DNA of 64,000 nucleotides from a virus (lineage: Duplodnaviria > Caudoviricetes), in IMG/VR virus record IMGVR_UViG_3300025413_001239; one strand, written 5' to 3'. Below the pieces are notes generated by a model, which worked only from the letters and a program-made list of their open reading frames with translations, had not been told where the DNA came from and searched no databases. A program made the translations under genes and the position numbers. Below are positions 10,029-60,811 of this stretch, piece after piece (the stretch's first letter is position 1; each line of letters opens with the position of its first letter).

Positions 10029-10089
10029 AGAATCAGTTCAGCAAATTAAACAATTTTTTTATCTGAAACAAAAAAACAAAATGATTCTG
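10029..10089 (+). ncRNA. CAGCAA-family RNA, copy B (Phe-like loop)
   Basis: AGAATCA-gtt-CAGCAA ... TGATTCT-G; T7/A7 stem with CTGAAAC loop. Confidence 0.6.
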
Positions 10090-10094
10090 AAATT

Positions 10095-10168
10095 TACGTC
10101 ATTGGTGTAATGAGCACGTGCCCCCACATGGGGGGGGTTTAGACCAGTATCAAATCTGGATGACGTAC
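10095..10168 (+). tRNA. atypical tRNA-like gene (possible CAT anticodon)
   Basis: TACGTCA/TGACGTA acceptor, CCAG-tatcaaat-CTGG T arm, C/G-rich anticodon arm lacking U33. Confidence 0.45.
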
Positions 10169-10170
10169 TT

Positions 10171-10207
10171 GCGAGGTGGAGCAGTAGTAGCTCGCTAGGC
10201 CCGTAAA
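10171..10207 (+). pseudogene. 5' half of an initiator-type tRNA
   Basis: GCGAGG-TG-GAGC-AGTAGTA-GCTC-G-CTAGG-CCCGTAA with no 3' half. Confidence 0.5.
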
Positions 10208-10213
10208 ATACAT

Positions 10214-10285
10214 TGCGCTGTAGAGAAGTAGTATCTCGCAAGCCTCATAAGCTTGAAATCATTGGTGCAAATCCAATCGGCGCAT
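10214..10285 (+). tRNA. tRNA-Met(CAT)
   Basis: TGCGCTG/CGGCGCA acceptor; CAAGC-CTCATAA-GCTTG; TGCAAAT T loop. Confidence 0.85.
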
Positions 10286-10290
10286 CATAT

Positions 10291-10376
10291 CGTGGGATGA
10301 TGTAACGGTAACATTTGTGGCTCATAACCACAGTAGGCTTATAACCCTTGTATCAGTTCGATTCTGGTTCCCGCAA
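10291..10376 (+). tRNA. initiator-like tRNA-Met(CAT) with extra anticodon-like hairpin
   Basis: C1:A72 mismatch; TGTGG-CTCATAA-CCACA; variable region GG-CTTATAA-CC. Confidence 0.8.
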
Positions 10377-10383
10377 CAAAAAA

Positions 10384-10437
10384 AGAATGAATTCCGCAAT
10401 TTAAATTTTTTATTTGGAAAAAAACAAACTCATTCTG
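10384..10437 (+). ncRNA. CAGCAA-family RNA, copy C (Pro-like loop)
   Basis: AGAATGA-att-CCGCAA ... TCATTCT-G; T/A stem with TTTGGAA loop. Confidence 0.6.
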
Positions 10438-10513
10438 AAAAAATTAAAAGATTTATCGAAAGATAAGTCTTTTTTTATTTGTATTATCCTTAAGAATTTC
10501 GTATATTTGCATT

Positions 10514-10693
10514 ATGGATATTAATAAAATTAATGGTAATGAAATCATAGACTTTTTAAATAGTCTTGATATGGATTCAGATAAAGAAGCTGGTGAATTT
10601 ATTGGTGTTACTGGTGGTGCAATACAATATGCATGTTTAAAATCTAAAAACAATAAATGTAAAAATTATATATTTAAATATGAAACAAAATAA
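10514..10693 (+). CDS. 59 aa NUMOD1-like HTH mini-protein or endonuclease remnant
   Basis: SDKEAGEFIG..GGAIQYAC...K.Y.FKY resembles NUMOD1. Confidence 0.45.
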   Translation: MDINKINGNEIIDFLNSLDMDSDKEAGEFIGVTGGAIQYACLKSKNNKCKNYIFKYETK

Positions 10694-11189
10694 TATAAGA
10701 CTCAATATTGTGGGTTCAGCTAGGCATGGGAAAGATACACTTGCTGAAATTCTTAACGAACACTTCGGACTTAAATTTATATCATCATCTCAAGCATGTG
10801 CCGATATATTCATTTACGATGCGTTAAAAGACAAGTATGGTTATAAGACACCAGAAGAATGCTTTGACGATAGGGTTAATCACAGGTCAGAATGGTATCA
10901 AATGATATGTGATTATAATAAAGATGACAAGGCTAAATTAGCGAAGGAGATTCTTAAGTATAATAATACATATGTTGGTATGAGAAACCACGATGAAATT
11001 GAAGAATGTCGTAAACAAGGCTTATTTGATTTAATTATCTGGGTGGATGCCAGTGAAAGACTTCCAAAAGAAGATTCAACATCTTTCAATATTACTAAGG
11101 CTGATGCTGATATTATAGTTGAAAACAATCAAGATTTAAAGACATTTAAAAATAAAATTGATAAATTAGGTAAATTATTGTTTAAATAA
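10680..11189 (+). CDS. P-loop nucleoside monophosphate kinase (dNMP kinase-like)
   Basis: GSARHGKDT Walker A; GMRN..E; IWVDAS; ADIIVEN. Confidence 0.7.
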   Translation: MKQNNIRLNIVGSARHGKDTLAEILNEHFGLKFISSSQACADIFIYDALKDKYGYKTPEECFDDRVNHRSEWYQMICDYNKDDKAKLAKEILKYNNTYVGMRNHDEIEECRKQGLFDLIIWVDASERLPKEDSTSFNITKADADIIVENNQDLKTFKNKIDKLGKLLFK

Positions 11190-11265
11190 ACTTTCTAATT
11201 TGTTAACAATAATATCGTATATTTGCATCAGAATAAACAAAAAGGGTCGTTAAAAAAAAAGTTTT

Positions 11266-11315
11266 AAAAAAACTTGACAAATTAAAAAACTTTTCGTATA
11301 TTTGCATATATTTAT
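11266..11315 (+). promoter_or_regulatory. conserved promoter of tRNA operon 1
   Basis: TTGACA (11274)-17 bp-TATATTTG (11297), followed by ATATTTATT. Confidence 0.85.
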
Positions 11316-11339
11316 TAATAACGAACAAAAATTATCACA

Positions 11340-11441
11340 ATGATAGCAAACATAAACAATATGATTAATTCGATAAATTGGAGACATAATAGTCGCTCAA
11401 TTAATCAAGTCATGCTATCTAGTGATGTTAATAAAATATAA
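11340..11441 (+). CDS. leader peptide 1, MIANINNMINSINWRHNSRSINQVMLSSDVNKI
   Basis: Manually translated 33 aa ORF between promoter and terminator; 27 of 33 residues match downstream tRNA identities. Confidence 0.8.
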   Translation: MIANINNMINSINWRHNSRSINQVMLSSDVNKI

Positions 11442-11462
11442 CAAATTAAATCACAAATAACG

Positions 11463-11500
11463 AAAAGCCTCTGACTCATACGAATCAGAGGTTTTTTTTT
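11463..11500 (+). terminator. attenuator terminator, tRNA operon 1
   Basis: GCCTCTGA/TCAGAGGT stem plus T9. Confidence 0.9.
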
Positions 11501-11504
11501 ACCC

Positions 11505-11678
11505 ATGTCAGAAGAAATACGATATAAGAAATTAGGTGTTGTAAAACAAAAAGACTTGGATGCTGATTTTGATTCGATATACGATAAGTATAAGAGTATT
11601 GCTTTAGAACTTGGTTTAACAGGTGATTTAAAGTTTGTAAAAGAAAAGGGTAAAGTAATAATTTACATAGCTATTTGA
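11505..11678 (+). CDS. 57 aa hypothetical protein, first gene after attenuator 1
   Basis: Manual translation MSEEIRYKKLGVVKQKDL...IYIAI*. Confidence 0.6.
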   Translation: MSEEIRYKKLGVVKQKDLDADFDSIYDKYKSIALELGLTGDLKFVKEKGKVIIYIAI

Positions 11679-11694
11679 CATTTAGGAAAAACAC

Positions 11695-11795
11695 ACGTAA
11701 ATGACCGAGTGGTCGAAGGTGGTAGGCTCCAACCCTACTGAGATATATAACATTTATGTTAGGTCTCCGCATAGGTTCAAATCCTATTTTACGTG
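11695..11795 (+). tRNA. tRNA-Trp(CCA) with long variable arm
   Basis: GTAGG-CTCCAAC-CCTAC; ATAGG-TTCAAAT-CCTAT; about 30 nt variable hairpin. Confidence 0.8.
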
Positions 11796-11805
11796 CAAAA
11801 TATAT

Positions 11806-11972
11806 TGGTAGGTGATGAAATTAGGAATTATATTCCGATGGCAGACATGCCCAATTGTCTCTTGGGTGGTGATAACGAGATAGATAAACAATACAGGGTT
11901 GACCACTAGCTTGCAAGCGTTAATGTTGTTTATTGAATCGCACCGTGGATGGTTCGAATCCTCCTCTACCAG
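11806..11972 (+). tRNA. giant tRNA-Asp(GTC)-like gene (167 nt)
   Basis: TGGTAGG/TCTACCA acceptor, G73; CCCAA-TTGTCTC-TTGGG; extra D-loop hairpin and about 77 nt variable hairpin. Confidence 0.65.
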
Positions 11973-12016
11973 CAATAGTTTACTTGGACAACGTTCTTAA
12001 AATCGGAGTCCGTCAT

Positions 12017-12099
12017 GGAGAGTGGCACCCAAGGTGGGTAACTAGACTTGAAATCTAGGCCAAGGTAAAAACTTGAGGTTTCGATTACTTCACCATCCG
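12017..12099 (+). tRNA. tRNA-Ser(TGA)
   Basis: CTAGA-CTTGAAA-TCTAG, long variable arm; two acceptor-stem mismatches. Confidence 0.7.
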
Positions 12100-12127
12100 C
12101 AATTTTGGTTGTTTTTTACTTTTTTTT

Positions 12128-12216
12128 GGAGAAATAAGGAGGGTAATGGTGGACCCCGTCCGTTTGCTAAACGGAAACCCATTAAGTTGGGCACGTTTCG
12201 ATTACGTATTTCTCCG
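12128..12216 (+). tRNA. tRNA-Ser(GCT)
   Basis: GGAGAAA/TTTCTCC; TCCGT-TTGCTAA-ACGGA; type II variable arm. Confidence 0.85.
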
Positions 12217-12219
12217 CTG

Positions 12220-12305
12220 GATATATTGGCAGAGTGGTTTAATGCAATTTGCGTGAAGCAAATGGTCCTTAAAGGGCCCACAGGTTCGAATCCTGTATAT
12301 TATCT
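12220..12305 (+). tRNA. type II tRNA, possibly Ser(TGA), atypical
   Basis: Good D, variable and T arms; loop CGTGAAG lacks U33; bulged acceptor. Confidence 0.5.
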
Positions 12306-12312
12306 CTAAATA

Positions 12313-12387
12313 TGGGTTTCGAAGCTTTAAGGTGAAGCGCAAGTTTGTGGCACTTGAGAACTCGGTTCGATACCGTGCGTTACCCCA
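12313..12387 (+). tRNA. tRNA-His(GTG)
   Basis: CAAGT-TTGTGGC-ACTTG; CGG-TTCGATA-CCG. Confidence 0.8.
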
Positions 12388-12419
12388 AAATTGTTTTAAG
12401 TAATTAACTGTTAAAAAAT

Positions 12420-12492
12420 GGGTAGTTAGTTCAACTGGTAGAGCACTGTTCTGATACGACAGCCGTTACAGATTCGACTTCTGTACTACCCA
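12420..12492 (+). tRNA. tRNA-Ile(GAT)
   Basis: GGGTAGT/ACTACCC; CTGTT-CTGATAC-GACAG. Confidence 0.85.
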
Positions 12493-12497
12493 CAAAT

Positions 12498-12570
12498 TGG
12501 TCTTTAGCTCAATTGGTAGAGCAAGATACTCATAATATCGAGGTAATGGGTTCGATTCCCGTAGGACCAA
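12498..12570 (+). tRNA. tRNA(CAT), elongator Met or lysidine-type Ile2
   Basis: TGGTCTT/AGGACCA; GATA-CTCATAA-TATC. Confidence 0.85.
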
Positions 12571-12594
12571 CATAATATTCTTCCATGGTGAAAT

Positions 12595-12666
12595 GGCTTG
12601 GTAGCTCAAAGGTGGAGCATTCGTTTGTTAAACGACAGGTTGAGATATCGTAATTCTCCCAAGCCG
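12595..12666 (+). tRNA. tRNA-Asn(GTT)
   Basis: GGCTTGG/CCAAGCC; TCGT-TTGTTAA-ACGA; non-canonical T loop. Confidence 0.8.
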
Positions 12667-12734
12667 CAAATTAACTTTTTTTGTTAATTATTTGACTTTT
12701 TGTTCGAACTGTGTATATTTATAATAAAGAATAT

Positions 12735-13481
12735 ATGAAAGAAAAAATATTAGAATTAAGGAAAAATGGGTTATCAATAAATGAAATAGTTGAAGAGTTA
12801 AAGTGTGCTAAAAGTACTGTTTCATACCATATAAATAAAAACGGTTTAGGTGGTATTAGAAATAGGTTCTTAAAAGGTGTTAGTGATGAAACGATAAATA
12901 AAATTAAAATTTTTAGATTAGAGTCTAAAACATATAATGAAATTTTAGAGTTAATTGACATAAGTGAGGATAAATTAAAAAAAATTTGTCGATTATTTGA
13001 GATAAATAATAGTACTGGTGGTTTTAAACTTAAAGATGTTGATAAAGATGAGGTTATAAAGTATTATTTATCTGTAAAATCAATACGAAAAACTGCTGAT
13101 TATTTTAATATTAGTAGAGACACAGTTAAAAAATATATACCTGACAATCTTATCTTAATTAAAGATAAAATAACCAAATCACAATCAGTTATTAATTGGC
13201 GTAAAAGAACAAAAATTAAATTAATTGATTATAAAGGTGGTTGTTGTGAAAAGTGTGGTTATAATAAATCTACATCAGCATTACAATTTCATCATTTAAA
13301 CCCTAAAGAAAAGGATTTTCAAATTGGTGGTTCAAGTTATTCATTTGAAAATCTAAAAAAAGAAGTTGATAAATGTATATTAGTATGTGCAAATTGTCAT
13401 ATCGAAATACATGAAGAATTAAGGATTTGTAGCTCAGAGGCAGAGCATTCGTTTGTTAAACGACAGGTCGAGATATCGTAA
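12735..13481 (+). mobile_element. HNH homing endonuclease with HTH domains; C-terminus reads through a duplicated tRNA-Asn
   Basis: CEKCGY...LQFHHLNP...CILVCANCHIEIH. Confidence 0.85.
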
Positions 13482-13495
13482 TTCTCCATTAGCGC
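13430..13495 (+). pseudogene. 5'-truncated duplicate of tRNA-Asn(GTT)
   Basis: GTAGCTC..GAGCATTCGTTTGTTAAACGACAGGTCGAGATATCGTAATTCTCC nearly identical to 12601-12660; acceptor 5' strand missing. Confidence 0.75.
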
Positions 13496-13499
13496 ACAT

Positions 13500-13569
13500 T
13501 GCGTAGGTTATCGGAATACAACCATCTCTCATAAGGAAGGTCAAGGCGGTTCAGCTCCGCTCTACGCAA
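13500..13569 (+). tRNA. tRNA(CAT)
   Basis: TGCGTAG/CTACGCA; CTCATAA loop; GCGG-TTCAGCT-CCGC. Confidence 0.7.
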
Positions 13570-13572
13570 CAT

Positions 13573-13645
13573 GGTTCCATAGTTCAATGGATTAGAACAG
13601 ATGATTACGAATCATCCGATAAGCGTTCGAGTCGCTTTGGGACTA
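13573..13645 (+). tRNA. tRNA-Arg(ACG)
   Basis: GATGA-TTACGAA-TCATC. Confidence 0.9.
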
Positions 13646-13646
13646 C

Positions 13647-13757
13647 AGTATAGTAAATGTGATATAAGAAGAACTAATATCAGGTGGAGTTAGTGTCCGT
13701 ACCACGTTAAAAAATTGTGATGATTATACAAGGTGTTGTCGAGTACACAACTATACT
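13647..13757 (+). ncRNA. cloverleaf-like RNA of unknown identity
   Basis: AGTATAGT/ACTATACT closing stem with four internal hairpins, including T-arm-like GTGT-tgtcgagt-ACAC. Confidence 0.45.
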
Positions 13758-13761
13758 ATTT

Positions 13762-13787
13762 GGTCTTGTCGTTCAATGGATTAGGAC
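13762..13787 (+). pseudogene. 5' half of disrupted ancestral tRNA-Arg
   Basis: GGTCTTG acceptor strand pairs with CGAGACC at 14474-14480. Confidence 0.75.
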
Positions 13788-13795
13788 TACTATAA

Positions 13796-13868
13796 GCTTC
13801 TATGGTGTAACTGGATAACACTTTTGCCTTCTAAGCAAACTTTCTGAGTTCGAATCTCGGTAGGAGCA
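13796..13868 (+). tRNA. tRNA-Arg(TCT)
   Basis: GCTTCTA/TAGGAGC; TTTGC-CTTCTAA-GCAAA. Confidence 0.9.
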
Positions 13869-13921
13869 CTAGTTAAATGGATATTTTTTTTCTTTTTCCA
13901 TTTAACGATATATTTATTAGT

Positions 13922-14458
13922 ATGGAAAAAGAATTTTTAATTGATTGTATTAATAAAGGGTTAAGTCTAAAAAAAATAAGTAAATTATGTGGTAAAGCAC
14001 CTAGTACAATAACATATTGGTTAAATAAATTTAATTTAAAAACTAATAATTTGTCGTTTAAAGTTAAAGGAAAAATTGATTATAATAATCAAAGATGTTG
14101 CCCAAAATGTAAAATTACTAAAGAATTAAATGAATTTTATAATAGACGTGATAAAATAGGTAGTTCAGTTTATTGTAAAACTTGTACCAATAAACAAGTT
14201 TTAGATAGACAACGGGAACTTAAGCAACAAGCTGTTGATTATAAAGGTGGGTATTGTATAATATGTGGTTATAATAAATGTAATGCGGCGTTAGAATTTC
14301 ATCATTTAGAACCAGATAAAAAAGATTTTAGCATTAGTCAATTAAAAAAATATGCCTTTACTGAAAATATAAAAAAAGAATTAGATAAATGTATTTTGTT
14401 ATGTTCTAATTGTCATAGAGAATTTCATTCTGGTATTTTAATTCTAAGCAAACTATAG
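13922..14458 (+). mobile_element. HNH homing endonuclease
   Basis: CPKC, CKTC, CIICGY..CNAALEFHHLEP...CILLCSNCHREFH. Confidence 0.85.
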
Positions 14459-14481
14459 CAGTTCGAATCTGCTCGAGACCA
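14442..14481 (+). pseudogene. 3' half of disrupted ancestral tRNA-Arg(TCT)
   Basis: TTCTAAGCAAACT (also at 13829-13841), AGCAG-TTCGAAT-CTGCT, CGAGACC-A. Confidence 0.75.
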
Positions 14482-14491
14482 CATTTTTTAT

Positions 14492-14579
14492 GGAGAGCAA
14501 ACCCTGACGGTGAGGGGGTCCGCCTGCTAAGCGTGAAGTTCGGCGAAAGCTGGATTCGGTTCAACTCCGATGTTCTCCG
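14492..14579 (+). tRNA. tRNA-Ser(GCT), second copy
   Basis: GGAGAGC/GTTCTCC; CTGCTAA loop; long variable arm. Confidence 0.8.
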
Positions 14580-14600
14580 CATTTTTCATTTGTTGTTTTT

Positions 14601-14624
14601 AAGGGTACTTCGGTACCCTTTTTT
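14601..14624 (+). terminator. end-of-operon terminator, tRNA operon 1
   Basis: AAGGGTAC-TTCG-GTACCCTTTTTT. Confidence 0.9.
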
Positions 14625-14647
14625 ATTTTATGGGATATTTATAAAAT

Positions 14648-15292
14648 ATGCAAAAAGCTAAATTTATACTTCACGAACAAATGAATCGTATTCATGAATT
14701 ATCTGGAAACAATATGGTTTCAGGTAAACATCTAGTTGTTGTTGATATTCAACCAGAATACGAACAATGGTGCAGTCACATTCTCCCAGAATTTGTTGAT
14801 TTTTTAAATGAAAACTATGAAACCCTTTCCAGATTAACTTTCCTATATAATGGTGATAGTCTTGGTATGGTTTCTGAGGGTAACTATCAAAATTGGTGGT
14901 TCGATAATGGCTTAAGTGAAGATGTAATTTACAGTTCAAGGTTTTATGATAAAGGCTACGCATTTTTTAGGTATTGTATTGATGAGGGTATAGATGATGA
15001 AACTATTGTTAACCTAATAAAGTACATGCTTGAAAAGGATGTATTTGATACTAGAGAATTAGATGAGGAATTCTGGGATGAGTATGTCGAAAGATATGGT
15101 GCTGCGCATATCAGAGAATTATTAGAATTTGCTGGGGACTCAATGAATATACCAGACCTTATGGATGAATTAAAAAATTATACAAACATAATATTATGTG
15201 GTGGTGGGATTGATGAGTGTCTTAAAGAGGTTGAAATAGCTCTTCAAGTACTTAACAAACACTATACTGTTTTAACAAAATATACATACTAA
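14648..15292 (+). CDS. isochorismatase/cysteine hydrolase-like protein
   Basis: LVVVDIQ and ILCGGGIDEC patterns. Confidence 0.45.
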   Translation: MQKAKFILHEQMNRIHELSGNNMVSGKHLVVVDIQPEYEQWCSHILPEFVDFLNENYETLSRLTFLYNGDSLGMVSEGNYQNWWFDNGLSEDVIYSSRFYDKGYAFFRYCIDEGIDDETIVNLIKYMLEKDVFDTRELDEEFWDEYVERYGAAHIRELLEFAGDSMNIPDLMDELKNYTNIILCGGGIDECLKEVEIALQVLNKHYTVLTKYTY

Positions 15293-15954
15293 TGAAAATT
15301 TTAAACATATTTAAAAAACTCATATTAGAAAATGAAATACCTCTTGATGAGGAGTATCCATTAAGTTGGAGTATCGAAGAATTTAAGAAGTTAAGAAATT
15401 TTAGTCAAAGGGTTAAGTATTGTGAAACGCATCTAAAGCGTATATCATCAGGTTCTGGTAGAATTGCTTATAAGATTGATGAAGAAAAGGTTCTTAAATT
15501 GGCTAAAAATGAAAAGGGTGTTTCACAGAATCAAGCTGAAATTCAACAATCTGATGATTATTACTTACAACCAATACTAGCAAATGTATTTGAATACGAT
15601 GAGAATGGGTTATGGGTTGAAATGGAACTAGCGAGAAAATTAACTGCTGGTGATTTTAAAAGACTTGTTGGTTTTAATTTTAAAGACTATGCAGAATTAT
15701 TACATAATCACGGTGTTGTAGCCAATCTTGGTCGTGGTTTTAAATACTCAATAGATAAAGAATTATCAGATGCTATGTGGGATAATGATTTTATATCTAG
15801 TATACTAGATTATATTGGTAGTTGGGGTGTTCCATCGGGTGATTTAGAACGTCTTAATACATATGGTATAGTTAAAAGAGATGGTAAGGATACTATTGTA
15901 ATTGTTGATTATGGCTTAACTGAAGAAGTTCTTAATAAACATTATAAAAGATAA
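15292..15954 (+). CDS. atypical protein kinase-like protein
   Basis: SSGSGRIAY loop, VLKLAK, GDL and IVDYG motifs. Confidence 0.55.
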   Translation: MKILNIFKKLILENEIPLDEEYPLSWSIEEFKKLRNFSQRVKYCETHLKRISSGSGRIAYKIDEEKVLKLAKNEKGVSQNQAEIQQSDDYYLQPILANVFEYDENGLWVEMELARKLTAGDFKRLVGFNFKDYAELLHNHGVVANLGRGFKYSIDKELSDAMWDNDFISSILDYIGSWGVPSGDLERLNTYGIVKRDGKDTIVIVDYGLTEEVLNKHYKR

Positions 15955-30398: not shown

Positions 30399-30450
30399 AA
30401 AAAAACTTGACAATTCAAAAACTTTTCGTATATTTGCAGTATATTTATTA
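30399..30450 (+). promoter_or_regulatory. conserved promoter of tRNA operon 2
   Basis: TTGACA (30407)...TATATTTG (30429), then ATATTTATT. Confidence 0.85.
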
Positions 30451-30473
30451 AAAGAGATTAAAAGATAACAAAA

Positions 30474-30554
30474 ATGAGAAATTTAAACAACATATTGGTC
30501 CTTGTGTTATGTGTGCTAGTGTTAACTAGTTCTACTGGGTATTCCATGTTTTAA
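30474..30554 (+). CDS. leader peptide 2, MRNLNNILVLVLCVLVLTSSTGYSMF
   Basis: 26 aa ORF between promoter and terminator; six Leu (TTA, TTG, CTT, CTA) and a Cys. Confidence 0.8.
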   Translation: MRNLNNILVLVLCVLVLTSSTGYSMF

Positions 30555-30578
30555 ATTTAACATTTAAAAATAATTGAG

Positions 30579-30609
30579 AAGCTCAGTCCGAAAGAACTGA
30601 GCTTTTTTT
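30579..30609 (+). terminator. attenuator terminator, tRNA operon 2
   Basis: AAGCTCAGT/ACTGAGCTT stem plus T7, 3 nt before tRNA-Cys. Confidence 0.9.
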
Positions 30610-30611
30610 AT

Positions 30612-30683
30612 GTGCCTTTGTCCGAGCGGTTTAGGTAGAGTTCTGCAAAAGCTCTTACGGCGGTTCAAATCCGTCAAGGCACT
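30612..30683 (+). tRNA. tRNA-Cys(GCA)
   Basis: GTGCCTT/AAGGCAC; GAGTT-CTGCAAA-AGCTC. Confidence 0.9.
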
Positions 30684-30910
30684 CTTTAAAATTAAAAACA
30701 ATGGAAAAAAAATGACATCAAAAAAGCATTGTATAAGGAAAAGCCATTAGCCACCTTATCACATTATGAAGAAGGATGGAATTGGCATAACCGAAACCTA
30801 CCCAACCATAAGTGGAGAGAGTATAAGAGTTGGAAGTATAATAGAAAAACTAAGTGGAAATGAAAAAGAGATTTGATGCCTTGTAACACTCTAATGTGTA
30901 ACAATGCAAA

Positions 30911-31180
30911 ATGAAAAAAATGAACAAGAAGCTGTATGATAGAACAGTTGACAACAAAACGTACAAGTTATGCCATTATCAACAAGAAAATATTTGTTGT
31001 TTAAGATGTGCGAAAAGAAGAAGAAGAAATTATTTTTATTATGACTATGACGGTGGGAAACATTGTTATCCAAGTTGGAAATTAGTAAGTAAAAATAAGA
31101 AGCAATGGATGCCAAAAAAACTTAAGATTGAGGAAGAAAAACCCAATCGTTGGTATAGTAGAGGTGACATTACTTGGTAA
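30911..31180 (+). CDS. small basic Cys/Trp-rich protein in tRNA operon 2
   Basis: CLRC and SWKLVSKNKKQW pattern. Confidence 0.6.
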   Translation: MKKMNKKLYDRTVDNKTYKLCHYQQENICCLRCAKRRRRNYFYYDYDGGKHCYPSWKLVSKNKKQWMPKKLKIEEEKPNRWYSRGDITW

Positions 31181-31276
31181 TTGCGACATCAAGACATATT
31201 AAAGTGTCGTGATAGGTTTAAAAGTTACAAATTGTTGCAATAATTGCGACATTTCACCAGATAAATGGTGAAATAT

Positions 31277-31361
31277 GGGGGTGTGGTGGAATGGTAGACA
31301 CGCAGGTCTTAAAAACCTGTGGACCGTAAGGTCCGTGTGAGTTCGACTCTCATTGCCCCTA
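31277..31361 (+). tRNA. tRNA-Leu(TAA)
   Basis: CAGGT-CTTAAAA-ACCTG; type II. Confidence 0.9.
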
Positions 31362-31366
31362 CACAA

Positions 31367-31475
31367 CTGTGTTTCTGATAGGGTTGCTCAGTAGGAGCTC
31401 CAGTAAACCTTATCCGTTGATGAATAGTGGTCATGACATGAGTTCATTTTTCTGGTACGACAATCCAGAATACGG
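31367..31475 (+). ncRNA. cloverleaf-like RNA of unknown identity
   Basis: Closing CTGTGTT/AATACGG; GATAGGGTT/AACCTTATC arm; TCAT-GAC-ATGA hairpin; CTGG-tacgacaat-CCAG T-arm-like. Confidence 0.4.
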
Positions 31476-31561
31476 CCCTATGAGCAAATTGGTAAAGCTT
31501 GCGGTCTAAGAAACCGTGGAAAACATTAGAAACGTTCTCAGTTCAAATCTGAGTAGGGCTA
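31474..31561 (+). tRNA. tRNA-Leu(AAG)
   Basis: GGCCCTA/TAGGGCT; GCGGT-CTAAGAA-ACCGT; type II. Confidence 0.85.
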
Positions 31562-31563
31562 CT

Positions 31564-31785
31564 ATGAGTTTTAATTTTGATGAAAAGAAAATTGGTGATA
31601 TAGTTCAGATGACGGATTATTTTATAAGTATAAATCCTAGTGAACATATTCAGGAATTTAAAGATTGTGAAGGCGAAGTTATTGGTTATAGTGATGAAGG
31701 TTATACTGATTACTTAGATGTTAGATGGCAACCTAGTGGGTTAAGATATGGTTATCATTGGGTACATTTAAAACTAGTCCAATAA
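31564..31785 (+). CDS. hypothetical protein
   Basis: ATG just after tRNA-Leu(AAG). Confidence 0.65.
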   Translation: MSFNFDEKKIGDIVQMTDYFISINPSEHIQEFKDCEGEVIGYSDEGYTDYLDVRWQPSGLRYGYHWVHLKLVQ

Positions 31786-31958
31786 TGGCTAAAAAAGTAT
31801 CAAAAGAAGTTCAGATTAAACATTCTGAGGATTATGTTGAATTTCTAATTAAGCGGTTAAATTCTAACAACTATAAGTTAGCAGCAACTAAGGAAGAGTA
31901 TGCGGCAACTAAAGCTAAATTAGATAAAGAGCGATTGATACTTAAGTTGTTAAAATAA
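31785..31958 (+). CDS. hypothetical protein
   Basis: MAKKVSKE..., coupled to the previous stop. Confidence 0.65.
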   Translation: MAKKVSKEVQIKHSEDYVEFLIKRLNSNNYKLAATKEEYAATKAKLDKERLILKLLK

Positions 31959-31959
31959 T

Positions 31960-32041
31960 GGGGGTATGCTGGAAATGGTATACAGCTACGGTTTAGACCC
32001 GTAGGTCAAAAGATTTGCAAGTTCGAACCTTGTTACCCTCA
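31960..32041 (+). tRNA. tRNA-Leu(TAG)
   Basis: CTACGG-TTTAGAC-CCGTAG; type II. Confidence 0.9.
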
Positions 32042-32043
32042 CA

Positions 32044-36091: not shown

Positions 36092-36142
36092 AAAAAAACT
36101 TGACAATTCAAAAACTTTTCGTATATTTGCATATATTTATTA
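36092..36142 (+). promoter_or_regulatory. conserved promoter of tRNA operon 3
   Basis: TTGACA (36100)...TATATTTG (36122), then ATATTTATT. Confidence 0.85.
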
Positions 36143-36165
36143 ACAACAAGTAACAATTAAAAGAT

Positions 36166-36264
36166 ATGAAAAAGGCATATACATATTATCAACCGAAAAC
36201 GCAAGGGGGCAAAACTCCTAATAGGCTGGGTGTATCTTTTTCTGATGAAGATGATTGTAAGTAA
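36166..36264 (+). CDS. leader peptide 3, MKKAYTYYQPKTQGGKTPNRLGVSFSDEDDCK
   Basis: 32 aa ORF between promoter and terminator; residues 5-18 are only Y/T/Q/P/G/K. Confidence 0.8.
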   Translation: MKKAYTYYQPKTQGGKTPNRLGVSFSDEDDCK

Positions 36265-36284
36265 ACAATTAGTAAGATATAAGT

Positions 36285-36321
36285 AAACCCCAGTCTGATG
36301 AAAATTCAAACTGGGGTTTTT
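36285..36321 (+). terminator. attenuator terminator, tRNA operon 3
   Basis: AAACCCCAGT/ACTGGGGTTT stem plus T tract, 7 nt before tRNA-Pro. Confidence 0.9.
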
Positions 36322-36327
36322 AATTTT

Positions 36328-46410: not shown

Positions 46411-48360
46411 ATGATTAAAATAAATGATGTGATAGAAGGAAAAATAAGCGTTAACCATAGTGGTTCCGCTTATTTGGTTAGTGAGCAATCACCAAAGGAT
46501 ATTTATGTTCATAAAAACAATATTAATAAAGCATTTCATTTGGATGTTGTTAAGATTAAAATAGTTAATGGTCGTGGTCGTGAACTTGAAGGTGTCGTTA
46601 CTGAGATAGTTAAAAGATTCAGAGACGAATTTGTTGGTAGTATTCAAATATCAAAAAAACATGCATTCTTTATACCAGATAGTAACAAGATGCCGATAGA
46701 TTTCTTTATACCTCTAACAAAATTAAAAGGTGCTAAAGATGCTCAAAAAGTTGTTGTTAAATTAACATCTTGGAAAGATAACAGTAAAAACCCTAATGGT
46801 GAAGTTATAAAGATTCTAGGTGAAGCTGGTGATAATGAAGTAGAAATTCACTCAATACTCCATGAGTATGATTTACCCTATGACTTTGAACCTGACATTT
46901 TGGCTGAAGCTGAGGCGATATCGAGTGAGATAAGACAGTCTGACATAGATGCTCGTAGAGATATGAGGGATGTACTTACTTTTACAATTGACCCAGTAGA
47001 TGCCAAGGATTTCGATGATGCTTTATCAGTACAATGGGTTAATGGTCAACTTGAAGTTGGTGTTCATATTGCCGATGTATCACATTATTTAAGACCAGAT
47101 ACGGACTTAGATAAAGAAGCTTATCGTAGAGGTACCAGTGTTTACTTAGTTGATAGAGTTGTACCAATGCTTCCAGAAAGGCTTTCTAATGGCTTATGTA
47201 GTCTTAGACCACATGAAGAGAAGTTGTGTTTTTCAGCGATATTTACGCTTGACCAAAATGCAACAATTGTAAATGAATGGTTTGGAAGAACAATTATTAA
47301 TTCTGACCATAGGTTTACATATGAAGGAGCCCAAGAAATAATTGAAGGTAAACCACATTTCTATGAGTCTGATGAACTTGATGTTAATGGTGGATATGTT
47401 AAAACGCTTGGTGGTATGATAAAAGATGCGGTATTAGCTCTTGATAAGTATGCTAAAAAGCTTAGAAAGCAAAGACTTGGTGAAGGTTCAATTACTTTCG
47501 ATAAGCAAGAAATAAGATTCAAATTGGATGAAAACAACAAGCCAGTTGACCTTATATTCAAGATAGCTAAAGACTCAAATCAATTGATTGAAGAATTCAT
47601 GCTTTTAGCGAATAGAAGGGTTGCTTATTTGTTAAATCACAATGATTACCCAGATATCAATCGTGTGCATGAGGAACCAAGTCAAGAAAAGCTTTTAGCA
47701 TTAAAGCAATTTATTAAGCAATTTGGTTATGATATTAAGGTAAATACACCTGAGGAAATAACTTTATCACTTAACAAATTACTTGCTAGTGTTAAGGGTA
47801 AAGCTGAAGAAAACATAGTTTCTAACCTTGTGGTTAGGTCAATGCAGAAAGCGGCTTATTCTACAAAGAACTTAGGTCATTATGGTCTTGGATTTGAAGA
47901 TTACGCTCATTTCACCAGTCCAATTAGAAGATATCCAGACGTAATGGTGCACAGACTTCTAGGACGCTATTTAGAGGCTAAAGCAGCCCCTAAATTAGAT
48001 AAGTTGGAGTCAAGGTGCCAATACTTATCTGAACGTGAAAGAAAGGCTCAAAAAGCTGAAAGAGATAGCATCAAGTATATGCAATGCATATATATGAGTG
48101 AAAGAATTGGTAATGTTTATAAAGGACTTATCACTTCGGTTACTGATTATGGTATGTTTATAACAATTTGTGAAAATAATTGTGAGGTATTGGTAAAATT
48201 AACATCAATCAATGGAACTTGGTTGGTGGATTTAAAAAAATATCAAATAGTTGAATTTGACACTAAAGAAAAAATAAGATTAGGTGATTATGTTCATGTA
48301 GTTATTACTAAAGTTGATGTTGAAAAAAAGAATATTGATGCATCAATTATGCTTCTCTAA
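46411..48360 (+). CDS. rnr: ribonuclease R
   Basis: TIDP.DAKDFDDA, VHIADV, HFTSPIRRYPD, C-terminal S1. Confidence 0.95.
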   Translation: MIKINDVIEGKISVNHSGSAYLVSEQSPKDIYVHKNNINKAFHLDVVKIKIVNGRGRELEGVVTEIVKRFRDEFVGSIQISKKHAFFIPDSNKMPIDFFIPLTKLKGAKDAQKVVVKLTSWKDNSKNPNGEVIKILGEAGDNEVEIHSILHEYDLPYDFEPDILAEAEAISSEIRQSDIDARRDMRDVLTFTIDPVDAKDFDDALSVQWVNGQLEVGVHIADVSHYLRPDTDLDKEAYRRGTSVYLVDRVVPMLPERLSNGLCSLRPHEEKLCFSAIFTLDQNATIVNEWFGRTIINSDHRFTYEGAQEIIEGKPHFYESDELDVNGGYVKTLGGMIKDAVLALDKYAKKLRKQRLGEGSITFDKQEIRFKLDENNKPVDLIFKIAKDSNQLIEEFMLLANRRVAYLLNHNDYPDINRVHEEPSQEKLLALKQFIKQFGYDIKVNTPEEITLSLNKLLASVKGKAEENIVSNLVVRSMQKAAYSTKNLGHYGLGFEDYAHFTSPIRRYPDVMVHRLLGRYLEAKAAPKLDKLESRCQYLSERERKAQKAERDSIKYMQCIYMSERIGNVYKGLITSVTDYGMFITICENNCEVLVKLTSINGTWLVDLKKYQIVEFDTKEKIRLGDYVHVVITKVDVEKKNIDASIMLL

Positions 48361-57527: not shown

Positions 57528-57755
57528 GTAAACAAATTAGTAAAGAACCTTGGAATACTACATATTTTTCACTTTTTTAATATATTCTTAAACAATATAA
57601 AATTTTAAAAAATAACATTAGAATGTCCTAAGCTTTTAATTTTTTAATTAATTCATTAGTTAATGTTATTGATATTATTTTTTTCATATCTTTATTATAA
57701 TAAAAATATTTTGCAAAGTCAATTAAATTATTTATCTTTGTTTAAATTTAAAATT

Positions 57756-58694
57756 ATGAATAGAATTGGGTATTGTTGTATTTCACTTGGGATAAACATA
57801 AACCGTAGTAAAAAAAATCATATTACAGTTAATCGTGGTATGGTTAAGAAAACATTTATCGAAAAAGGAATTAAATATGCATCAGAATTGGCATACTTAA
57901 ACTTATGTGATTTACTGGAAATTTTAAAATACAACGTAAGAAAAAATATATATGTTTATCGGTTATCTAGTGACCTATTTCCTTGGATGTCAGAATACCA
58001 ATTACAAGATTTACCGAATATCAAATCAATCAAGAGTAAGTTGATAGAAATCGGTAATTTTATTAAAAAATATGATATTAGAACAGGGGCGCACCCAGGC
58101 CCGTTTAACGTTTTAGCAAGTGAAAATCAATCAGTTGTTACTAAGACAATATTTGAATTGAATCAACATGCTGAACTTATGGACTTGATGGGACTGGATA
58201 AATCACACTATTACCCTATCAATATTCATATCAATACAACTAAGCCAACTAGAGAATTGGCAGCTGCGCGTTTCGTTGAGAATTTTAAGCTTTTGTCTGA
58301 TTCATGTAAGGCTAGGCTTACTGTTGAGAATGATGATAGTCCTAATCAGTATTCAGTTAAAATACTACATGACTTAGTGCATGTTCAAACTGGCATACCG
58401 ATTGTATTTGACCAACATCATTTCAATTATGGTCAACAGGACCAAACTATGGAAGATGCGTTAAAATTAGCACATTCTACTTGGACTGTGAAGCCATTGA
58501 CACACATGAGTTCTTCTAAGACCTTAGAGGATTCTAAGGGTGTAGCAACAGCACACGCTGATTACATATATGAAAAAATCCAAACTTTTGGTTTGGATTT
58601 TGATATTGAGATTGAGGCTAAAGCTAAAGACTTAGCCGTATTGAAATACATCAATGAGTTTACTTCAAAGTTAGAAGATACTTTAGTTGATTAA
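57756..58694 (+). CDS. uvsE: UV damage repair endonuclease
   Basis: RIGYCCI, YRLSSDLFP, HPG.F..LAS, NIH, RL.VENDD, FD.HH, EAKAKD.A. Confidence 0.92.
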   Translation: MNRIGYCCISLGININRSKKNHITVNRGMVKKTFIEKGIKYASELAYLNLCDLLEILKYNVRKNIYVYRLSSDLFPWMSEYQLQDLPNIKSIKSKLIEIGNFIKKYDIRTGAHPGPFNVLASENQSVVTKTIFELNQHAELMDLMGLDKSHYYPINIHINTTKPTRELAAARFVENFKLLSDSCKARLTVENDDSPNQYSVKILHDLVHVQTGIPIVFDQHHFNYGQQDQTMEDALKLAHSTWTVKPLTHMSSSKTLEDSKGVATAHADYIYEKIQTFGLDFDIEIEAKAKDLAVLKYINEFTSKLEDTLVD

Positions 58695-60711: not shown

Positions 60712-60735
60712 AAGTTGTATATTTGCATTTCTTAT

Positions 60736-60807
60736 GGTGAGGTAGCTCAGTAGTAGAGCACAATTTTGAAAAGATTGGTGTCGGTAGTGCGAATCTGCCC
60801 CTCACCA
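60736..60807 (+). tRNA. tRNA-Phe(GAA)
   Basis: GGTGAGG/CCTCACC; CAATT-TTGAAAA-GATTG; own TATATTTG promoter. Confidence 0.85.
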
Positions 60808-60811
60808 CACG

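Follow-up and report, generated by a model that had tools for sequence, protein, structure and literature searches.

We describe a leader region, at positions 11274-11500 of the 64,000-nucleotide stretch of DNA analysed here (the window), which probably functions as a multivalent leader-peptide transcription attenuator gating a phage tRNA array by negative feedback. Termination, translation and regulation are all inferred in this reading, no expression data being at hand. An earlier note, made from sequence alone, had proposed that a leader ORF mirrors its own tRNA array and is wired to a terminator. This proposal is now strongly supported by its replication elsewhere in the window, by about 20 related contigs, by distant huge phages, and by tests in which leaders were cross-matched with arrays and with terminators; the regulation itself is still an inference.

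Three criteria of a leader-peptide attenuator are met by the first unit of the window (unit 1): a short leader ORF, codons related to the array, and an intermediate intrinsic terminator. As for the antiterminator, the pairs of unit 1 are kept in all five sequences compared but are weak and show no covariation; support comes from cognate pairing across the whole class of leaders and from compensatory changes in a sister unit (unit 3). The features discussed below are collected in Table 1.

Table 1. Positions of the leader, its predicted RNA elements, the downstream array and the sister units in the window
Feature	Positions	Strand	Remarks
Upstream tandem copy of conserved promoter core CGTATATTTGCAT	11216-11228	+	Member of repeat families D5 and D7
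Leader-transcript promoter	11274-11307	+	TTGACA 11274-11279, 17-nt spacer, TATATTTG 11297-11304
Region 1 (ATCAC..GATAGCA)	11334-11348	+	Spans start codon; pairs with region 2 in MFE fold
Leader ORF	11340-11441	+	33 codons plus TAA, ATG start; stop codon 11439-11441
Array-matched sensing codons	11343-11405	+	Codons 2-22; nearly all read by downstream tRNAs
Region 2 (AGTCA-T-GCT...GTGAT)	11408-11426	+	Alternative partners: region 1, or terminator 5' arm plus inner hairpin
Inner hairpin (GTGAT.TTAAT / ATTAA ATCAC)	11422-11454	+	Encloses stop codon; present in predicted stalled-ribosome folds
Intrinsic terminator (predicted)	11463-11500	+	Stem 11463-11496, core CCTCTGA.TC / GA.TCAGAGG; T9 11492-11500
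57-aa ORF, function unknown	11505-11678	+	Between terminator and tRNA-Trp, in all type-1 loci
tRNA array 1, presumed controlled	11695-14580	+	ARAGORN and Rfam
tRNA-Trp-CCA	11695-11795	+	Rfam
tRNAs Ser-TGA, His-GTG, Ile-GAT, CAT tRNA, Asn-GTT, Arg-ACG, Arg-TCT, Ser-GCT	array 1		ARAGORN
Two HNH/HTH homing-endonuclease ORFs	12711-13481, 13877-14458		Interrupting array 1
Unit 2	30427-30610	+	Promoter, 26-codon Leu/Val/Cys-rich leader (30475-30555), terminator
Unit 3	36120-36325	+	Promoter, 32-codon Tyr/Thr/Gln/Pro/Gly/Lys-rich leader (36167-36265), terminator

Promoter and genomic context

Proteins encoded in the window are 46-48% identical to those of LR756511, LR745206 and LR756502, uncultured phages of 0.6 Mb, and we take its source to be a large uncultured phage of Bacteroidota type, the identity of the host being inferred. 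A DNA similarity search of 11150-11720 against 50,697 phage records returned no match. An Rfam scan of 9000-15500 at E<=1 reported tRNAs only, with no T-box (RF00230), known leader, sRNA or other cis-regulatory family.

The TATATTTG element of the leader promoter is a -7 box of the TAnnTTTG type. TAnnTTTG is the Bacteroidota -7 box consensus, and the leader promoter fits it. Transcription is inferred to start near 11308-11310, about 30 nt before the leader ORF. The core CGTATATTTGCAT, seen here also as an upstream tandem copy, occurs 14 times in the window against 0.11 expected, and the promoter block of about 45 bp also heads the leader/array units at 30427 and 36120. Shine-Dalgarno-like words lie upstream of only two of 47 long ORFs, and upstream regions are A-rich at -13 to -8; since genes of this phage generally lack a Shine-Dalgarno sequence and have A-rich upstream regions, and the leader likewise, a leader without this signal is normal here.

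Other observations concern the same genome. In 9788-10213, a further copy of this promoter leads into about 400 nt devoid of any leader ORF, with two CAT-anticodon tRNAs (10214 and 10291) beyond them; the 400-nt stretch is GC-richer and possibly structured, with no Rfam match. A tRNA-Phe located right after a promoter copy (60716-60808), with neither leader ORF nor terminator, provides an unregulated counter-example. The window further encodes an RNase R/II-like exoribonuclease (46411-48360; RNB, CSD and S1 domains; E 2e-110) and a UvdE UV-endonuclease (57663-58694).

A leader ORF matched to its tRNA array

An exact recount confirms that 27 of the 33 residues of the leader ORF are M, I, N, S, W, R, H or D. 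No other among the 183 small ORFs of the window is as extreme for this content. Stop-free 33-codon windows taken over the whole stretch contain 12.5±3.0 such residues on average, and only 4 of 26,420 contain 27 or more; these four are likely to be overlaps of the leader ORF itself, which we have not checked. The window has a GC content of 30.5% and N, I and S are therefore common residues. AT bias does not, however, explain the composition of the leader ORF, from which K, F, L and Y are almost missing despite this bias.

The match extends to codons. Under standard wobble rules, the nine tRNA species of array 1 can read 24 of the 32 codons that follow the start, against a background of 0.293 expected from the phage's own codon usage (binomial p 1.2e-7); 24 or more in-set codons were never reached in 200,000 random draws. 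For each of the nine species, the leader contains one or more cognate codons (P=0.003 for random codons of this phage). Four ATA codons count only if the CAT tRNA at 12498 is a lysidine Ile2 species, and similarity did not separate Met from Ile2 for this tRNA; without ATA, the figure is 20 of 32. The codon run from TCG to AAT on which the earlier note relied is exactly as quoted and corresponds to codons 11-22, and its claim that the leader samples every isoacceptor holds for the nine species found. Its description of an array for eight amino acids holds in part: seven are verified, and the Asp tRNA is unconfirmed.

The interior of array 1 deserves separate description. It also holds several low-scoring Ser-like elements. 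Its tRNA-Trp(CCA) carries an insertion of about 29 nt in the variable region, according to the Rfam alignment, while Trp tRNAs of related contigs have an ordinary length of 72-73 nt. Positions 11806-11982 are tRNA-like, with acceptor-like ends (TGGTAGG/TCTACCA), large insertions, a TTCGAAT loop, and a stem-loop CCCAA-TTGTCTC-TTGGG that has GTC at the anticodon position. Neither ARAGORN, even when relaxed, nor Rfam called a tRNA in this element, which was left out of counts; it could be a disrupted or unusual tRNA-Asp. With 85% identity to 12595-12672, a degenerate second tRNA-Asn (13423-13500) overlaps the first homing-endonuclease ORF at its 3' end, and may be a homing scar. Upstream of the array, the 57-aa ORF shows no Pfam family above cut-off and no PHROG match. 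Its sole homologue in the phage collection (LR745206, 584983-585147) is not beside tRNAs, and the ORF is probably a passenger gene.

Terminator and alternative helices of unit 1

The sequence of the unit-1 terminator, whose hairpin has a predicted dG of -16.1 kcal/mol, is invariant across the five homologues, and the whole leader folds with z=-6.9. Most structural elements proposed in the earlier note were recovered, some with modifications. The terminator, given there as 11467-11500, held, its stem now being mapped as 11463-11496 followed by T9. The complementarity of GATAGCA and TGCTATC (11342-48/11413-19) held as well, and is extended in the MFE fold by ATCAC/GTGAT (11334-38/11422-26). Its proposed role as anti-antiterminator is only partly upheld: the region 1:2 helix is present in three of five sequences (that of the window, W1, with L019 and L020) and absent from L022 and L013, and the 78% of cells paired across homologues is no better than in shuffles.

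The proposed antiterminator (11408-12/11472-76 and 11414-16/11466-68) can pair in each of the five type-1 sequences, a single C-to-U wobble included; its pairs are 100% conserved and thus give no evidence of covariation. The structure we predict is a longer irregular stem than had been drawn, including the inner hairpin around the stop codon, a counterpart of which is seen in all five type-1 sequences. In the window, the duplex between leader and terminator arm reaches -7.9 kcal/mol (p 0.13) and the extended antiterminator -7.7 kcal/mol, versus -16.1 for the terminator. In the nearest relatives, L019 and L020, a better inner hairpin brings the extended antiterminator to -16.6. When leaders were crossed with terminator arms, W1 was best in its own row and worst in its own column. 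We consider unit 1 a genuine member of the class, with a fine structure that is less certain and possibly leakier toward termination.

Sister units in the window

Three units in the window follow one layout: a promoter, an ORF of 26-33 codons, a terminator and a tRNA array. tRNA-Cys begins 2 nt past the T run of unit 2 and precedes three Leu tRNAs. Unit 3, with the leader core YTYYQPKTQGGKTP, is followed from 36328 by tRNA-Pro, and its array runs in the order Pro, Pro, Gln, Tyr, Thr, Gly. In both units, the first tRNA lies 2-10 nt past the T run; because this leaves no room for another promoter, these tRNAs can be expressed only by read-through of the terminator. The antiterminator helix of unit 3 (AGGCTGGG/CCCAGTCT) has 87% of cells paired, a level reached in 7 of 500 shuffles, and two of its pairs show compensatory changes; slid controls gave 24-46%.

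One peculiarity concerns leader 2, which contains five Val codons, yet no Val tRNA was found in array 2 of the window (30612-32042). Val-TAC and Val-GAC tRNAs are present in the corresponding array of L001, L003, L006 and L038. Leader 2 might thus keep the memory of a lost or relocated part of its array.

Related phage contigs

About 20 related contigs of metagenomic phages that share the promoter-ORF-terminator-array layout came to light when the promoter 19-mer was searched for in IMG/VR and metagenomes. Four of them (L013, L019, L020 and L022) have type-1 arrays (Trp, Ser, His, Ile, Met, Asn, Arg), in which the leader ORF is kept and the homologous leaders have the common core (S/N)S(I)(N/S)WR(H/R)NSRS. 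Differences from W1 are either synonymous (AAT/AAC, CGC/CGT, CAT/CAC) or mostly within the amino-acid set of the array, as for 8 of 9 changes in L022 and 6 of 8 in L013. Using the type-1 terminator as query brought up four loci, all of them known beforehand.

Other arrays in these contigs differ in content. The Cys/Val/Leu array of L010 and L021 is also equipped with Asp, Phe and Ala tRNAs, and its leader run ILALLDCTAVLFDAFDAL contains D, F and A. Lys tRNAs in the arrays of L007 and L003 go with Lys-rich leaders, and the different arrays of L018 and L112 have leaders that differ correspondingly. Within the Pro/Gln/Tyr/Thr/Gly/Lys array of L007, we also observed a tRNA with a CTA anticodon (3197-3272), of the amber-suppressor type and reported as 'Pyl' by ARAGORN.

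Leader units in distant phages

All eight arrays examined in LR745206 and LR756502 have leader units, which rely on different promoters and terminators. A leader with HKNFSKSHKWFS precedes a His/Phe/Trp/Lys/Ser array, a PVNPQPQDQDP leader a Pro/Asp/Gln array, leaders with IETIGYTGYEGAYSE and SYESYYEEG precede Glu/Tyr/Gly/Ile/Ala arrays, and a MNLNMTMNLTLNVVNITL leader an Asn/Leu/Thr/Val/Ile/Met array. LR756511, which has sigma-70-like promoters and Shine-Dalgarno sites, has a SASLRLSSYSLSSLLYS leader ahead of a Ser/Leu/Tyr array. One instance in a cultured phage, examined in part, also fits the layout: gp083 of the Caulobacter phage phiCbK, a 45-aa hypothetical protein rich in S, L, P and K, is followed 3' by an annotated rho-independent terminator and then by Pro, Pro, Lys, Lys, three Leu and two Ser tRNAs. 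The phiCbK genome paper (PMC3556154) does not mention a leader or attenuation.

A bolder reading, which we consider more likely than not, is that several unrelated lineages of large phages would autoregulate their tRNA arrays by codon-matched leader-peptide attenuators; among them would be the giant phage of Bacteroidota type with its relatives, the uncultured phages of 0.6 Mb, and phiCbK-like phages.

Matching of leaders to arrays and terminators

We compared 11 leader classes with 11 arrays, scoring each pair by a codon-level Z against the codon usage of the phage. Over the diagonal, Z sums to 41.9 versus 0.5±4.1 for derangements, none of which reached the observed value in 20,000. Eight leaders rank their own array first and the other three rank it second. 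Type-1 leaders score 0.60-0.79 on type-1 arrays, and 0.03-0.13 on Cys/Leu(/Val) and Pro/Gln/Tyr/Thr/Gly arrays. Pooled over leaders, the fraction of decodable codons is 0.55 in frame versus 0.28 and 0.18 out of frame; taken with the conservation of start and stop, this dependence on frame speaks for translation and against a reading as RNA only. Since many of the compared sequences are related, permutation tests overstate independence. The four lineages whose promoters and terminators are unrelated can in effect be counted as independent.

More than 25 units have an ATG start (GTG in one), 23-38 open codons, and a stop located 19-35 nt ahead of the terminator. In the clade of the window, 18 of 18 units examined have a T run (T6-T9 tails) preceded by a hairpin of -11 to -17 kcal/mol, and terminators of huge-phage units range from -12 to -27 kcal/mol. 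When each leader is paired with its own terminator's 5' arm, the best duplex invariably lies within the 3' third of the ORF and stops 9-30 nt short of the stop codon's end; it is individually significant in most units (p 0.003-0.05). Cognate duplexes sum to -92.4 kcal/mol versus -64.2±4.8 for non-cognate assignments (0 of 7,337).

We also modelled a ribosome stalled at codons 8-16 by folding the remaining RNA with the terminator 3' arm not yet made. The MFE fold then pairs the terminator 5' arm in 15 of 15 sequences, as an extended irregular stem enclosing the stop codon, and this structure is lost in most sequences when the stall is moved to codon 20. Such stall-dependent folds have, in this model, the geometry of a classical attenuator.

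Proposed mechanism

The attenuator reading assumes that transcription and translation are coupled, and that intrinsic termination is efficient, in an unknown host. When charged tRNAs are ample, the ribosome would reach the stop codon and unwind region 2 and the stop-codon hairpin; by separating region 2 from the terminator 5' arm, it would let the terminator form, and the transcript would end near 11500. Should any one of the sensed tRNAs become scarce, through a mismatch in codon usage, host shut-off or host anticodon nucleases for example, the ribosome would stall within roughly codons 2-18. Region 2, the inner hairpin and the terminator 5' arm would then fold into the extended antiterminator, and polymerase would read through to the 57-aa ORF and the tRNA genes, the newly made tRNAs relieving the stall in a negative feedback. 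Without translation, region 1 would sequester region 2 and termination would prevail.

Alternative explanations

A first alternative is an ordinary small-protein gene with its own terminator, with tRNAs expressed by leaky constitutive read-through and a codon resemblance due to AT bias or chance. It can invoke the GC content of 30.5%, which makes N, I and S common, the resemblance of leader 2 to a hydrophobic membrane peptide, and the annotation of phiCbK gp083 as merely a hypothetical protein. We judge it very unlikely: the ORF tops 183 small ORFs with K, F, L and Y nearly missing despite the AT bias, leaders fit their own arrays and not others, in a frame-specific manner, and leader composition tracks array content across lineages through substitutions that preserve composition rather than sequence. 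No more credible is an RNA-only switch, T-box-like or an sRNA, that would bind tRNAs or another ligand and leave the ORF untranslated. The strong structure of the leader (z=-6.9), the location of the start codon inside the region 1:2 helix and the absence of a Shine-Dalgarno sequence speak for it. Against it, start, open frame and stop are kept in more than 25 units, the codon match is frame-specific, third-position changes are synonymous, Rfam gives no match at E<=1 to a T-box or any other family, and genes of this phage generally lack a Shine-Dalgarno sequence.

The polarity of the switch could also be reversed, efficient translation of the leader promoting read-through in a feed-forward manner so that tRNAs are made when translation is healthy. 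In favour of this, region 1:2 plus the terminator is the MFE state without translation, and some translation would thus be needed for read-through. But at least 21 nt separate the stop from the terminator stem, too far for a ribosome terminating there to melt the stem; the strand that can pair with the terminator 5' arm is inside the ORF, where a passing ribosome destroys the antiterminator; and codons matched to downstream tRNAs make sense only as a shortage sensor. This polarity is therefore highly improbable. Finally, the hairpin and U run might not be a regulated terminator at all, and serve instead in pre-tRNA processing or stability, for example by forming the 3' end of a stable leader RNA or by giving an RNase access. 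Precursors of tRNAs undergo heavy processing, and the hairpin adjoins the first tRNA in units 2 and 3. This explanation leaves unaccounted for both the array-matched ORF and the complementarity of the leader to the hairpin 5' arm, and the hairpins have the canonical form of terminators, with T6-T9 tails; we give it very little weight. Leader-peptide attenuation remains our preferred reading.

Implications

Why phages carry tRNAs, and to what use they put them, is an open question, for which codon-usage compensation, host tRNA degradation and escape from anticodon nucleases are candidate answers. A demand-sensing switch before each array would reveal tRNA supply to be something that phages regulate, and the leaders would form a readable record of the decoding events that the phage monitors. 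If the bolder reading is true, each array is a self-tuning module, in which the speed of ribosomes on a test ORF gauges the supply of the array's own tRNAs, and which switches on once the tRNAs of the host are depleted or come under attack. Such control would be the first known case of ribosome-mediated attenuation acting on tRNA genes, and viral tRNA arrays would follow a general design rule. Attenuation would be extended to a new class of targets, where the sensed molecule is the product itself. These compact, modular "codon-supply sensors" could be used as synthetic-biology parts. Annotation would gain too: tiny ORFs and terminators before phage tRNA blocks are now ignored or called hypothetical proteins.

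Comparison with known attenuation systems

Full-text literature searches brought up no account of attenuation acting on tRNA genes or on the tRNA arrays of phages. A Phe-rich leader of E. coli pheV was considered as a precedent and rejected: the 105 nt upstream of pheV (K-12) show none, and pheU and pheV have leaders of 3-4 nt (PMC7049720). T-box identity was likewise rejected for unit 1, no RF00230 match being found at E<=1 in 9000-15500. T-box riboswitches, marked by a specifier loop, a conserved T-box sequence and a stem I, resemble the phage units in sensing tRNA status through a terminator/antiterminator switch upstream of translation-related genes. They read one uncharged tRNA by RNA-RNA pairing without translation, however, whereas the frame of the phage leader is conserved and its match frame-specific.

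Multivalent attenuators are known in enterobacteria, such as the ilvGMEDA leader (Ile/Val/Leu) and the thr leader (Thr/Ile), next to trpL, hisL, leuL and pheL. Like these, the phage units would have a short translated leader rich in regulatory codons followed by an intrinsic terminator, a 5' antiterminator strand in or near the ORF, and an anti-antiterminator that operates when the leader is untranslated, the corresponding region 1:2 helix of unit 1 being found in only three of five homologues. As in the multivalent leaders, several amino acids would be sensed together. Unlike enterobacterial leaders, the phage leader is phage-encoded, lacks a Shine-Dalgarno sequence in keeping with Bacteroidota-type initiation, and covers at least seven amino acids with all their isoacceptors, most of them only once or a few times and without long runs. 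The unit would also regulate tRNAs, so that the molecule sensed is the operon's own product and feedback is direct.

The pheST attenuator of E. coli, with its pheM leader, is a case of leader-peptide attenuation of an aminoacyl-tRNA synthetase. It is conceptually the nearest system, as a component of the translation apparatus is there attenuated through cognate regulatory codons, but it is cellular, senses a single amino acid and controls a synthetase, while the phage unit would control tRNA genes. Attenuation itself is textbook; its trp-operon-style, leader-peptide form, as inferred here, would be newly applied to tRNA genes.
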